From NCBI RefSeq assembly GCF_002854065.1, contig NZ_CP024150.1: a stretch of 64,000 nucleotides of DNA; one strand, given 5' to 3'. The DNA comes from Escherichia coli (GTDB lineage: Bacteria > Pseudomonadota > Gammaproteobacteria > Enterobacterales > Enterobacteriaceae). Shown here one piece after another: positions 3,965-9,900 of this stretch. The number at the start of each line of letters is the position of its first letter. Position 1 is the first letter of the stretch. Made by a program: the position numbers.

Positions 3965-6900
3965 CAACGGATAATCAGCTCCGTTTATCTCACCCTCTTT
4001 CATCTTTTCGTAAGATTGTATTTGGGTAAGTCCCTTAAAGAAGAACTCCTGCGGGGTCATATTCGGGCGGGCATCTGTTCCCTCCTCGGCTACCGCCAGC
4101 AAGAAATCACTCTGTACTGGCCGCACGATAGCGCGAATGAGATCTGGTAGCGCCTTAACGGGTAGTTTCTCTGCCACAGAAAGCAGGTGATTAAAGCGTT
4201 TTTTTTCATTGGCTATAGTTGCTTTCTCTTTCTTGTTTCGGTTCCAGAACATCACTGTCCGTAGCACTCCTTATCGTGATCAAGATGATGGTTTTTAATT
4301 CTAATGCTGCGGTAGTTTCACGTCACGCACACATGCATATTCTTCAAAAGCTTCGGCGTCAGCCGGTCAACCAGTTCCGCCTAGTACCACAGGATAAACA
4401 GGCTCCCCACTAAAATTACTTCTTGATTAGTACCACGTACTAAAATGTTTGATTTTAGTACGTGGTACTAGTATGATTATCAGCATGAAGCTAAAGGAGC
4501 CAGTGGGATGAACTATCTGGAGTTTGTTGAAACCAGCGCTTTCAGTGGTCTGCGTAAAGAGCTCATGGATGATGATGAATTTCGGGAACTGCAGACCTAT
4601 TTACTGGAAGCTCATGATCGGGGTGACACTATCAGTCACACAGGTGGATGCAAAAAGATTCGGTGGAGCCGCCCAGGGATGGGGAAGCGAGGTGGCGTCA
4701 GAGTGATTTACTACGTTCGCCTTGCCAGCGGCAGATTATACCTGCTTCTGATATACCCTAAGAATGCTAAAGATGATCTTAGCGAGAAAGAAAAAGCCGT
4801 TATGAAGGTATTAGCACAGCAGCTGAAATAATGGTACCACTCAAATGGTGGCAGGCCTCTCCATAACGAGGAAAAATTTATGGAAAAGAAACTTTTTGAT
4901 GCACTTATTAACAGCATGGAGGAAATGGTTGCCATTGAGAATGGCCAAATCCAGCCAGCTGAAGAAAATATTCACCGCCATACACTGCCGGATGTGAAGG
5001 CTATTCGTAAACATGCCGGAATGAAACAGGCTGAATTTGCAGAAGTGGTGGGAGCCAGCGTTGACCTTATCCGCAGCTGGGAACAGAAACGGCGTATCCC
5101 GTCGGGTATTGCGTTGAAAATGCTCTGTCTCATCGAACGTGAGCCAGCACTGATTAATACCTTGCGCAGCATTTAATCCTGAATTTCTAAAGCCCAGTTA
5201 GATGGGCTTTAATATTTGTGATTCTGTTAACTTCGATCTGACTGCATCGTCACGTAGGCGCATAATGACACCCGGTAGCCGATACTGTTCTCAGGGACGG
5301 GTTTCTGAACTAACCTAAAATCCAGTCGTAATGATCCTCGTGAGTTACAGGGCTGTCTGATGACATAATACAGACATTCCCATAACCACCATCATGCGAA
5401 GCTGCATATTTAGACACGGCGATTGCATCATTTTTATTTTTTAATACCGCAATGATTTTTCCACTGTTATGCAATGTACTTACGCAGTAGATCCCTTAGT
5501 GCAAAATCTGATTTTCTTTTAATTGACTAGCCATGCCGATTACCCTTCTCCGTACAGAATGATTAATTGTGCAAAGGTAGCTGATCAGTTCGTCAACCCG
5601 CCGTGAATACGTATCTTCAATCTGTATTCTGTTTCTGTGTACCGTTACAGACCCTGATTACTGTCATCTTTGATACGCCAGCCAGACGGGCAGTTTCTCG
5701 CAGCGATTTTCCGTTGACCATGCGCAGAGTACGTATCAGTTCATGTTTCTGCGCATCGGCCACCCTGCCCCGGTATTTTCCTTCAGCTTTCGCTTTACAG
5801 ATTCCCTCTGCCTGCCGACGTCTACGGTCTTCGTAGTCTTTTCTGGCAATGGCGGCAAGCATATCCAGCATCATGCTATTTACGGCCTTTAACATGCTTC
5901 TGGTGAAGTCATCGCGGACTGCGTTGGTCAGGGCCATATGGCTGGTTGGGAGATCAAGACTGACAACAGATAACCGTTTATCTGTTATCTCTTTTCTAAG
6001 AATCACCCAGCCAGCATCATTCAGACGGGATAGCCGGTCCACCTGTTCAATCAAAATAACGTCCCCAGGCTCCATATCTGCAAGCATCCGAGTTAATTCC
6101 GGACGGTTCAGGGATGCACCTGATGCATTTTCAACATACCAGCCAGCAATTCGATGACCATGAAGCGCTGCAAATTCTTTGAGCCTGTTTTTTGAACGAA
6201 GCGCGTCTTGTTCCATTGTTGAAGCTCGAAGATATGCGTAAATGTACATTTTTTGCACGCCTGGTCTAGTATGAGTGGTCTATTATATAGTGGTAACTTT
6301 TAACTGGTACCATATCCAGGAATTCAAATCAATACTTGTGGTCATTTTTGGGGATACCCGAATGTGACTGACTGACTCGCCCGGGCGGGCTTGTCCAACC
6401 CCTCCCCCGTTCAGAAACAAGTTCTGAACAGACTCACGGTTTCGGAAACAGGTCAACAATATTAAATACGATCACATGAAATATTTCTTGGACACTTTTT
6501 CCGATAGTGCCGAAACGTCCACGATGGATCGTATTTTTTGTATATCCCAGGTTCAGGATTGACGGTGATGGAGCGAAGCACTGATTGAACTGGACTGAAA
6601 ATGCTGTATGTCCAGTCAGCCGGAGAATTATACTAGCGACCATGAGCATCACAGGAAGAACGCGTAACAGATGGCAACTGAGTGGGTAGATGTGGCTGAT
6701 AATGCCGTTAAAATTGGGCTTGGCTCTGCGCTGACAATATTGGGCGGTTATCTAACGCTCAAATTATCTCAGCGGCACGAGTTAAGGAAAGAAGCATTAA
6801 TTCGACGACGTAAAGATTTTGAGGTGAAAACTGAGCGTTACGTGAATTTTTTATCCAGTTCAAGAAAGATGTTGCAGAAATATACTATCAGCAATTTTAA

Positions 6901-9900
6901 GCCAGATGGGGATGATTACATGGAGCTTACAAGACAGCATGAAACATTATCCCTTACATGCTCGAATAGTATCATTAGAGAGCTGGCCTTTGATGCTTAC
7001 TATGCTGTTTCTCATGCATGCACAATGGGGACTGCAAATCGCGATGAAAAAGCCCCAGCCCGGAAAAAAGCTAAAGAGGCTTTAGATAAGTTTCAGGGAT
7101 TTGCCAGCGAAGAACTACGTCGTGAGAAAGCTGCAATTGATGTAATAAGCGATAAGCGGACATTCTGGTCCTTTAGACGGCGAACAGCGCGATGATGGTG
7201 TCCGGAGCGCGGAAAATCTTGTTTAAAATATCTAGCGCGGTAGCAGAAAGAAAACGCATTAGCCATCAACTGTATCTCGTTACTGGCACAAGAATTAATT
7301 CATGTATTACAGCAAGTTAGCAATTATGCGCAGTAGAAGTTATCGTGGAGTTTTTTGATGGAAGAAGTAACCCCCATGGAAATAAAAATGAGGGGTACGC
7401 TATACTCAAGTAACTTGAAGATGCTGGATGATTGAATTCCAACCACTGTATATTTTAGGCCGCATACATGATATTCAAAACAATTTTTTCAGTAATACTT
7501 TTTCTTTCATTTTCTGCCGCAGCACAACCACAAAAGTTGGAGTGTGTCAGCCGAAAGGATGGTACGGTAAAAATAGCGCATATTTTCAGCAGTCCATCAA
7601 ATAAGGGGCTGCTGGAGTTTGATAGTGCCATTTTTACGAAGGTGGATTCAAAAATAGAATCAGGAAATTTGAAAACCTTGTTTTCTACTCAACAAGAAGA
7701 GAGGCAAAAAGAAAGTCGCGTGATTTTTTTAACACTAAGAGACAGAGATGCCGAAATATTTGTCACAAGAAAAACTGGTAACAATGGTTATGAAGATGGG
7801 ATGATTTATGAATGTAATCCCTGAACATTTAATCCTTTTAGATATATTTAAATAAAATTTAGTCAAGAAAAGTGAACACATTTATGTTTCATAAGGAGTT
7901 TGTATGCTGGGTACTTCATTTCAACAGTTTTCGATAGAGGCGCTTCTGGAAAGTGCTTCACTACGCAGTGGACTGACAGCATTGAATAAGTGTAAATATC
8001 ATGATAAAGGCAGCTTTTATAATGCTTTTTTCAACTATCAATTGGTCTGGAACGTTTTTTAAAATTATTTATGTTGTTCAGTATATGATTGAAAATGATT
8101 TAAACAAACCAACATATAGTCATTTGAGAAAATTAGGTCATGATATAAGTACTTTACATCAAAATGCAGTAAATATTGCAATCAAATATGAGAAAAGAGA
8201 CAAAGGCAAATGGGTCTTAAATGATGAGCAATCTGCAATATTAACAATGCTATCGGAATTCGGGAAAGAAACCAGGTATTATAATTTAAATACTATTATT
8301 GGAGATAAAAAACTAATGAATGACCCTCTCGAGCAATGGAATTGTATTTTGGAGTATTGCTACTGGAAGTATACTTCAGCAACTAAAAGAGAGAGATTGA
8401 GTCAAGATGTAATCTCATGGGCTGAGAGAAATCGATTGTATGGTTTTACTAATGAATTTGGCCTCGATGGTCATATTATGACGTATGTAGATCAGTATCT
8501 ATTGAACTGGAAAGTAACCAAAATTTCGCCTTGCATTGCATGGGAAATAATTAGCATGTTGCAACCGTATTACTTTTTGCTAATGAGATTACGAGATACT
8601 GTGCAGTTGAAGGAACAAGATAAAGGCATTAAAGACCCTTTAGTACCATACTTTCATGAGATTTTCCCATATTTCCTTTTAGATCGTGCAACAGCGAAAA
8701 GACGTAGGAATTGGCTTGATTAGCCGCAATACTATTTCTAGACAGAATGAGTGTATGTCCAAGTCGGGCGAGGAATTAAACGAGAGGCGTAAAAAAGGCC
8801 ACTTACGCGGCCTTTGTCTGTTGGTTCTTCGGCCTGGTGACATACCACGATAAACATCCCACAGCTACACTCATCAACATTCCGGATAAGCGATCATCTG
8901 CCTGAGAAAACAGGCAACCGACAAACATCGCAACAGGGAAAGGAAGAAGTAAACAGCGCCCCAAAATGCTCATAAAATCCATAAATCCTCCTTTGTTAAA
9001 GGGCAGGAAGCGGTGCACTTCCTGCCCTTAGTTACGTTTCCGCAGTCATCAATCGATGAACTGGCGAATCAGTTCCAGAACAGCAATCAGCGCGTTTGCA
9101 ACGGCGACCACAGCCCTGAGAACGATGATTAACAGGTTAATCATCCGTTTCTCCAGATTGACACTGGAGGAAGTCACCGTTGCTTGCTCATACATCGCCT
9201 GTCACAACGGCTCTCTCACAATGTTGGATGTAGAGTACCTTCCCCCTGCCAGAGCACTGAACACAGCACCACCTGTTTGTTCAGCCAGGACTTTAATTCG
9301 TTCATACCCAGATAGCGCAGGGTTTAGAAGCAAGGGAGGCAACACTGTACAGCGCCAACACAAAGATTATACCGATGCACGCATAAAATTCATTTAAAGA
9401 AATGACCATTGACAGACAATCTGAAGTCAAACTAGACAACCGGTGTCTAGTGCCATAATATTATGGATGTTGGATGTAGAGTATCTTCCTCCAGTCAGAG
9501 CCACCAACTCAAAGCTGGAAAACACGAAAAAGCCCGATTACCAGTCGGGTTTTTTTGTGCCTGGCGTTCGGCTGTTCTTCCGTTTTTCCCCTTCATTTTA
9601 GGGTTTTTCTTTCTGTTTTTTTGTTGCGTCCAATGCCGCTGGTCGCGTTGACCAATAGCTCAATGTCGTTACCGGCATTTTCATAAATCCAATTTTTTCG
9701 GTAAGTTGAATCACACAAGATGATTAAAAAGCTGTCGGTTTTTTTGATGGATACAGTAGCGGCGGTGCGCTGCGTGAAATCTGATATTTTTCAGGAAGGA
9801 CTGAGCGCGAGAATTGGCGAGGGGGCATCAAAATATTTTTTGGGCATGAATGGAAATTCCCCCTGTTCTGGGCATTAAATAAATCCCACTCTGAAAAGTG

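Follow-up and report, generated by a model that had tools for sequence, protein, structure and literature searches.

We analysed a stretch of 64,000 nucleotides (nt) of Escherichia coli DNA from contig NZ_CP024150.1 (assembly GCF_002854065.1), hereafter the window, focusing on three consecutive open reading frames (ORFs) on its plus strand: ORF1 (6671–7195), ORF2 (7468–7824) and ORF3, which ends at 8723. Positions 5500–9100 are 100% identical to the E. coli plasmid NZ_AP027791 (IncFIA/IncFII, 109.8 kb). The first-pass annotation, made from the sequence alone, had correctly recognized the same-strand arrangement and described an AT-rich cassette of three genes without a recognizable family, located downstream of a serine recombinase gene. 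As it had stated, ORF1 encodes a membrane-anchored protein of 174 amino acids (aa) with a hydrophobic helix at residues 12–30, and ORF2 a 118-aa protein which, by inspection, carries a Sec-type signal peptide and is thus predicted to be secreted. The third gene, however, is not ~213 aa long, a length obtained from ATG 8082; it is ~273 aa in all relatives, with the start at ATG 7904. Scans of the three proteins against Pfam, NCBIfam, PADLOC and PHROG yielded nothing usable, in agreement with the absence of recognized families; in PADLOC-DB v2.0.0, ORF1 and ORF3 had no match and ORF2 matched only PDC-M47B (E = 0.008, 13.8 bits). The AT-richness is evident for ORF2 (36% G+C) and ORF3 (34%) but not for ORF1 (43%), when compared to 44% for the whole window and 48% for the resolvase gene.

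The three genes are part of a block (6590–9815) which also includes a 59-aa ORF, dqlB and AgrB and which is 98.5% identical over 3,229 nt to the IncX1 plasmid NZ_OX460314 (locus L002, 2289–5517), with both flanks being unrelated to that plasmid. The adjoining segment (9841–11663) contains a 500-aa gene and matches the unrelated IncF plasmid pSMS35_130 at 98.6% identity, and the accessory region around the block, which further contains sodC, genes for a NERD+UvrD helicase and a DUF6710 protein, a RelE/ParE-NadS pair and the resolvase gene, is bounded on both sides by IS3 copies. In IncX1 plasmids, the block is located between resolvase/partition genes and dqlB, hns, hha and topB, and the ORF1–ORF3 trio is present at 98–99% identity in approximately 14 IncX1 and 6 IncF plasmids. 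The DNA is horizontally acquired accessory material within a mosaic region of an IncF plasmid, as had been surmised; a 3.2-kb piece of the IncX1 variable slot would have been copied into the mosaic accessory region of an IncFIA/FII plasmid. The proposed link to the recombinase is looser. The serine resolvase gene (5617–6258; Pfam Resolvase PF00239, E = 1.1e-22), encoding an N-terminal catalytic domain followed by weak helix-turn-helix matches at residues 174–208, does adjoin the ORFs, but it lies outside the IncX1-derived block and on the minus strand, so that the ORFs diverge from it, with 412 bp in between, instead of lying downstream. Furthermore, the IncX1 copies reside near a different resolvase, to which that of the window is only 43% identical.

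Comparison of plasmids carrying one or more of the three genes revealed that each is found without the other two or in another order. In pE001-type IncX1 plasmids, which are commoner, a deletion between short GAAAAnCTTGTTT repeats has removed the 5′ two-thirds of ORF2, with ORF1 and ORF3 being intact. IncFII plasmids carry the ORF2 module (window 7246–7834) upstream of the ORF1 module (6590–7167) and lack ORF3, and Enterobacter plasmids carry ORF1 and dqlB with neither ORF2 nor ORF3. Homologues of ORF3 at 47–76% identity are found without nearby ORF1 or ORF2 in a Klebsiella plasmid, Yersinia, Erwinia, Enterobacter and a P2-like viral contig; indeed, neither ORF1 nor ORF2 was present beside ORF3 homologues in any non-IncX1 context examined. 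Plasmid MccC7-H22 and an IncHI2 plasmid have, in the same slot, the gene for a 633-aa OLD-family ATPase, which matches PADLOC Old (5.4e-19) and Pfam AAA_15, along with a diverged ORF1, at 44% identity in amino acids but 84% in nucleotides over the first 200 nt. Downstream of the OLD-family gene, these plasmids retain the final 44 codons of ORF3, with an amino-acid identity of 100%, a remnant corresponding to window positions 8589–8723 (plus strand) and marking the right conserved flank of the slot. The OLD-family module was also found without ORF1 in Morganella pMM1L5, and the idea that the OLD-family gene requires ORF1 as a partner was therefore rejected.

The left flank of the slot (6590–6799) comprises the upstream region of ORF1 and its N-terminal transmembrane codons, whereas the right flank, starting at 8589, comprises the 3′ end of ORF3, the 59-aa ORF and dqlB. 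We looked for a repeated recombination site at the module borders and found none. As judged from these alignments, the slot is a pair of conserved flanks around exchangeable single-gene cargo, and ORF1, ORF2 and ORF3 are not one cassette or operon, given that the genes occur apart, deleted or reordered. The modules of the IncX1 slot would be independent units of one gene and its own upstream region, swapped, deleted and reordered between plasmids. Likewise, the hotspots of other mobile elements (P2 gpA-portal, P4 psu-int and the iLund4u plasmid hotspots) consist of conserved flanks between which variable cargo is exchanged, and part of the cargo of the IncX1 slot is common to a phage hotspot. 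No description of the resolvase-dqlB slot of IncX1 plasmids as a hotspot was found in the literature, and the iLund4u preprint (bioRxiv 10.1101/2024.10.15.618418) does not mention IncX; searches by protein accession numbers gave no match and a broad search of the IncX1 literature returned nothing relevant.

The copy of ORF3 in the window (7904–8723, plus strand) is a frameshifted form of a 273-aa gene. In IncX1 plasmids, the gene is 822 nt long and starts at the position of window ATG 7904, behind an AAGGAG ribosome-binding site. Comparison with intact IncX1 alleles located two 1-nt deletions in the window, at 8026–8031 and 8055–8060, each of them a run of 6 T (T6) where intact homologues have 7 (T7). 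The frame is thereby broken into 7904–8062 and 8001–8723, with translation from 7904 stopping at 8062, and tblastn aligns the intact protein to the window over three frames. The codons between the two shifts specify S46, G48, E50 and R51, four positions at which the family shows little or no variation. The 240-aa "hypothetical protein" called by RefSeq from the internal ATG 8001 (8001–8723) is a truncated call on this frameshifted gene. Five E. coli assemblies, deposited separately, share the T6/T6 allele at 100% identity over 2,171 nt (AP027791, to which the window corresponds, ZH48, ZH49, CUPS TF 6/1_01 and E-93); in a sixth, AP027831, the identity is 99.7%, leaving aside an insertion of IS903B. 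The identity of the allele in five assemblies indicates a real mutation and argues against a homopolymer sequencing error. The ratio of non-synonymous to synonymous substitution rates (dN/dS) of ORF3 against diverged copies is 0.08–0.12. Because the two deletions strip invariant residues, the window copy is probably dead, and probably a recent pseudogene.

The family to which ORF3 belongs is large, yet no model in Pfam, NCBIfam, PADLOC or PHROG represents it. Its close relatives form 49 clusters, and a profile search recovered 1,530 clusters at 50% identity with E ≤ 1e-3, including 564 with E ≤ 1e-30. Almost all members are approximately 270 aa long, with one matched stretch each, and 10 columns are invariant in 83 diverse members (E12, G23, E50, R51, K54, H80, R125, Y126, P142 and W146). 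The AlphaFold2 (AF2) model of ORF3, with a predicted local distance difference test (pLDDT) score of 94.3 and a predicted template modelling (pTM) score of 0.91, is all-helical except for one hairpin. The best fold matches of the model are HEPN domains, further entries being sacsin, Csm6, AbiA and HepS, and the N-terminal half of the model forms a HEPN-like helical bundle with an all-alpha, up-and-down four-helix core. A Foldseek search against PDB gave nothing significant (long-helix proteins such as ClyA, IpaD and SipD), and the family profile had no match among PDB sequences. The nearest known systems are HEPN toxins and abortive-infection proteins (MNT-HEPN 5yep and 7ae2, 4nqf, Gifsy-1 HepS, AbiA and Csm6), from which ORF3 differs in several respects: it has no sequence or profile similarity to the HEPN families of Pfam or to PDB chains, it carries the invariant set E12, E50-R51-x2-K54, H80 and R125-Y126 in place of the Rx4-6H motif, and it possesses an additional C-terminal helical part of ~140 residues with a beta hairpin.

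ORF3 homologues recur in defence islands and hotspots. In two P2-like prophages (L010 and L020), one being from Erwinia billingiae and the other a viral contig with the 76%-identical homologue, the gene is located between gpA and the portal gene, an interval described as the old/tin defence hotspot of P2-like phages (Rousset et al., PMC9122126). A Tn7-like element carries one homologue as cargo, next to a Gabija-like pair (AAA_15 + UvrD); the homologue of the Klebsiella plasmid adjoins a dGTPase gene, near a NACHT protein; and a distant copy from an E. coli prophage lies at the prophage edge, adjoining a DNA invertase. Neighbours in 14 prophage loci include restriction-modification, RmrA, PDC-S05, AAA_15, TOTE and umuDC-type genes as well as invertases, and no partner gene is conserved across the family. 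The closest parallel in terms of location is provided by P2 Old and other OLD-family ATPase-Toprim nucleases, which occupy the same slots as the ORF3 family, namely, the IncX1/IncHI2 slot and the P2 old/tin locus. In other IncX1 plasmids and in IncHI2 plasmids, the OLD-family gene takes the place of ORF2 and ORF3, leaving the ORF3 remnant. Both are single-gene modules, but ORF3 is unrelated to the OLD-family proteins in fold and sequence and has no ATPase or Toprim domain. Uncharacterized cargo at P4 and P2 defence loci frequently turns out to be defensive, with 6 of 8 randomly chosen loci of this kind from P4 defence hotspots being reported to protect against phages (bioRxiv 10.64898/2026.02.27.708500).

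Taken together, the reading we favour is that the window holds a piece of the IncX1 slot made of independent modules, that the ORF3 family comprises anti-phage nucleases and that the ORF3 copy of the window is a pseudogene; we consider this combination slightly better than an even bet. Intact ORF3-family proteins would act as stand-alone nucleases against phages or other mobile elements, most likely as RNases functioning through abortive infection, an assignment which, taken separately, we propose tentatively and put somewhat short of even chances. Of the earlier suggestion of a functional module, this retains defence, which is plausible for the ORF3 family from the locations of its homologues, but not the union of the three genes. 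More specifically, and with slightly greater reserve, the family might represent a widespread single-gene effector against phages or mobile elements, HEPN-like in fold and with an active site (E12, E50-R51, K54, H80 and R125-Y126) that would be non-canonical, and the IncX1 slot a plasmid defence hotspot that trades cargo, of the OLD and ORF3 families, with the P2 old/tin hotspot.

Several observations weigh against the favoured reading. The canonical Rx4-6H motif is absent from ORF3, the nearest approximation being [R/K]76-x3-H80, in which the spacing is too short; position 76 is variable (R/K/S/Q), and the invariant arginines are R51 and R125. A Pfam scan of the 83 members produced no match to a HEPN model and no consistent match to any other family, the lone HEPN_AbiV hit (E = 0.079) being at noise level. 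As both the motif and a profile match are lacking despite the HEPN-like model, we term ORF3 HEPN-like only: by its predicted structure it is HEPN-like in fold, not a demonstrated HEPN member. Several members of the family lie among housekeeping genes, and cargo of the P2 hotspot is not all defensive, with only approximately 21% of its cargo groups matching DefenseFinder and non-defence cargo being present too (bioRxiv 10.1101/2024.10.15.618418). With respect to the pseudogene, both T6 runs are slippery heptamers in phase, from which trace amounts of full-length ORF3 could be made. Finally, with respect to the independence of the modules, ORF1 precedes differing downstream genes in several elements, with a gap of only 10 nt in Yersinia; ORF1 might thus act as a partner in some contexts.

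Four alternative explanations were considered. The most serious is that the ORF3 family serves the mobile elements that carry it rather than defence, as an anti-defence, establishment or regulatory factor or as a non-catalytic helical protein binding nucleic acids. The family is indeed carried by plasmids, prophages and transposons, has no match among PADLOC models, lacks the canonical HEPN catalytic motif and resides in hotspots which hold anti-defence and other cargo too. Nevertheless, we regard this explanation as rather unlikely, because the invariant E12, E50, R51, K54, H80, R125 and Y126 resemble an active site more than a binding surface, P2-like prophages and IncX1 plasmids alike have OLD-family genes in the slots that the family uses, and there is no conserved partner or target gene. 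It is also conceivable that the window copy of ORF3 is alive and that the T6 runs provide leaky or switchable control, by slippage or phase variation, which holds a toxic gene at low dose. The deletions leave the in-phase heptamers T_TTT_TTC and T_TTT_TTA, and, as read from the sequence, two −1 slips would restore the exact wild-type peptide NAFFQLSIGLERFFKI; the 222 downstream codons are undisrupted, with 4 synonymous and 2 non-synonymous changes compared to the intact allele, and the allele is stable across the five assemblies. However, such a heptamer arises automatically from any T7-to-T6 deletion, which makes leaky expression only a minor possibility. Two independent slips with no evident stimulatory structure would give far below 1% full-length product, runs of T6–T7 are short for phase variation, and there were no single-shift intermediate alleles among the matches listed. 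We accordingly give a live copy only a very slim chance.

The other two alternatives concern the three genes as a group. They could form one co-transcribed defence or toxin-immunity system in which ORF1 and ORF2 are sensor or effector partners of ORF3, as would befit their adjacency on the same strand and the near-identity of the trio in the IncX1 and IncF plasmids, and ORF1 homologues often precede variable genes, such as the OLD-family nuclease gene or that for a 443-aa protein in Yersinia. Yet conservation of the trio does not extend past near-identical copies of recent relationship, and the intergenic gaps are 272 nt between ORF1 and ORF2 and 79 nt between ORF2 and ORF3. Beyond these copies, the deletion of ORF2 in pE001-type plasmids, the inverse order without ORF3 in IncFII plasmids, the mobility of the OLD-family module without ORF1 and the ORF3 homologues at 47–76% identity, never beside ORF1 or ORF2, all argue against a single system, which we deem improbable. 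That the ORFs are chance frames in AT-rich non-coding DNA might be entertained given the lack of matches in curated family libraries and the near absence of ORF2 relatives. However, conserved relatives were found, contrary to the prospect, raised with the first-pass annotation, that the ORFs might not be conserved, and dN/dS is 0.08–0.36 for all three, indicating purifying selection; ORF3 has hundreds of diverged full-length homologues of conserved length and a ribosome-binding site, ORF2 has a canonical signal peptide, and the AF2 models are confident. The conservation pattern refutes this explanation, to which we assign practically no probability, and by the same comparisons the three ORFs are real genes.

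The interest of the locus rests with the unnamed ORF3 family and the IncX1 slot, not with the broken copy in the window, which, with ORF3 disrupted and ORF1 and ORF2 having no assignable function, is itself of small practical weight. If the ORF3 family does defend against phages, a large, uncatalogued single-gene family would join the defence repertoire, and a HEPN-like scaffold would be working without the Rx4-6H motif. As for the slot, small conjugative resistance plasmids appear to own a cargo-swapping hotspot like that of P2 phages, which bears on plasmid-phage competition in gut Enterobacteriaceae.

ORF1 (6671–7195, plus strand) encodes a protein with a single N-terminal hydrophobic helix followed by a K/R-rich stretch, and its structure model consists of the transmembrane helix and a helical bundle, a four-helix bundle that would probably lie on the K/R-rich, cytoplasmic side of the membrane. 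A transmembrane helix running into an antiparallel four-helix bundle is also characteristic of the periplasmic four-helix-bundle (4HB) sensor domains of chemoreceptors and histidine kinases. The first ~45 residues, including the Gly-rich transmembrane helix, are almost invariant across the family, which is found solely in Enterobacterales plasmids and integrative conjugative elements, and dN/dS against diverged copies is 0.14–0.36, indicative of purifying selection. As far as the alignments and the model go, ORF1 would be a membrane-anchored accessory factor of conjugative elements. Some ORF1 homologues are labelled "peptidase M14"; with no Pfam or NCBIfam match and a helical-bundle model, the label appears wrong and looks like an annotation artefact.

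The conserved region upstream of ORF1 (6590–6670, plus strand) contains an inverted repeat, CTGGACnG...TGTCCAG, at 6590–6615 and a TATACT hexamer resembling a −10 element. The left border of conservation falls at the same base (6589–6597) in six different plasmid contexts and coincides with the inverted repeat. Each locus has a single copy of the repeat, invariably upstream of an ORF1 homologue, and the repeat thus resembles an operator more than a recombination site; a site acting in the manner of pdif or attC was excluded, the other module borders being devoid of repeats. A LexA box (CTG-N10-CAG, 6604–6619) was likewise considered and rejected, because its second half-site is not conserved in homologous promoters.

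Three further observations concern ORF1 homologues. In the Yersinia enterocolitica chromosome (L048–L050, 6001–7815), the homologue lies just downstream of the gene for a giant polyvalent protein (LPD/MuF domains) of an integrative element and is followed after 10 nt by the gene for the 443-aa protein, which has no family match; the two may constitute a real two-gene unit. A gene for a 202-aa membrane-anchored protein without family match is found near ORF1 homologues (L002, 1667–2275; L054, 4398–5009; L051, 5307–5915), directly upstream of ORF1 in IncX1 and Enterobacter plasmids and, in IncFII plasmids, upstream with two genes in between; the window lacks it, as the copied block begins just past that gene. 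In NZ_OX460314 and its siblings (a laboratory-derived set of EC0880B plasmids), ORF1 is annotated as two coding sequences (L002, 2370–2561 and 2565–2894), and tblastn aligns it to ORF1 of the window across the junction (2562–2564), which suggests that ORF1 of NZ_OX460314 carries an in-frame stop codon.

ORF2 (7468–7824, plus strand) belongs to a module (7246–7834) which includes its own 220-nt upstream region and is 89% identical to L054, 5781–6367, where it stands ahead of the ORF1 module. The predicted signal peptide, MIFKTIFSVILFLSFSAAA, has a lysine at position 4 and a hydrophobic core with a 19-residue Kyte-Doolittle mean of 1.94, and precedes QP at an AxA-type cleavage site (SAAA before QP); the mature part contains two cysteines. 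Relatives are restricted to 5 clusters in 5.8 billion proteins, all from E. coli and all at least 84% identical. The dN/dS is 0.19 (32 substitutions compared to the IncFII copy). Judging by this distribution and by the deletion in pE001-type plasmids, ORF2 is a young, dispensable, predicted exported protein.

The right part of the IncX1-derived block contains three small elements. The 59-aa hydrophobic ORF (8803–8982, minus strand; MDFMSILG...) has a good ribosome-binding site and is conserved alongside the right slot flank of IncX1 and IncHI2 plasmids, where it is annotated as hypothetical; the gene table shown for the plasmid matching the window does not list it. dqlB (9049–9144, minus strand), identified from the RefSeq annotation of the identical plasmid and by translation, encodes a DinQ-like type I toxin, and the antisense small RNA AgrB of dinQ-type toxin systems is located at 9470–9557 on the plus strand (Rfam RF02891, 61.5 bits, E = 6e-9). 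A 35-nt direct repeat is present in the dqlB/AgrB area, at 9221–9255 and 9467–9501.

Beyond the block, an 89-nt non-coding element (6354–6442) lies between it and the resolvase gene. Intergenic parts including this element have counterparts, always unannotated, in over 1,000 plasmids of Klebsiella, Salmonella and Enterobacter, at identities of approximately 78–86%, and the element may be a res/crs-type site or the remnant of an insertion sequence end. On the other side of the resolvase gene, a RelE/ParE-family toxin gene (4508–4831) and a NadS-family gene (4880–5176), both on the plus strand, form a toxin-antitoxin-like pair located between the helicase and resolvase genes. The 596-aa NERD+UvrD helicase matches the PADLOC candidate model C3a187 nearly end to end (E = 1.7e-141). 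Its gene is adjoined by the DUF6710 gene (3869–4267), and the pair (1978–4267, minus strand), likewise within the accessory region, may be a candidate two-gene defence system. None of Pfam, NCBIfam, PADLOC and PHROG gave a match for the 500-aa gene (9941–11443, minus strand; 32% G+C), whose counterpart in pSMS35_130, at 98% identity, has an ORF1 homologue approximately 1.2 kb away; by eye, the 500-aa product looks like two repeats of ~250 aa.

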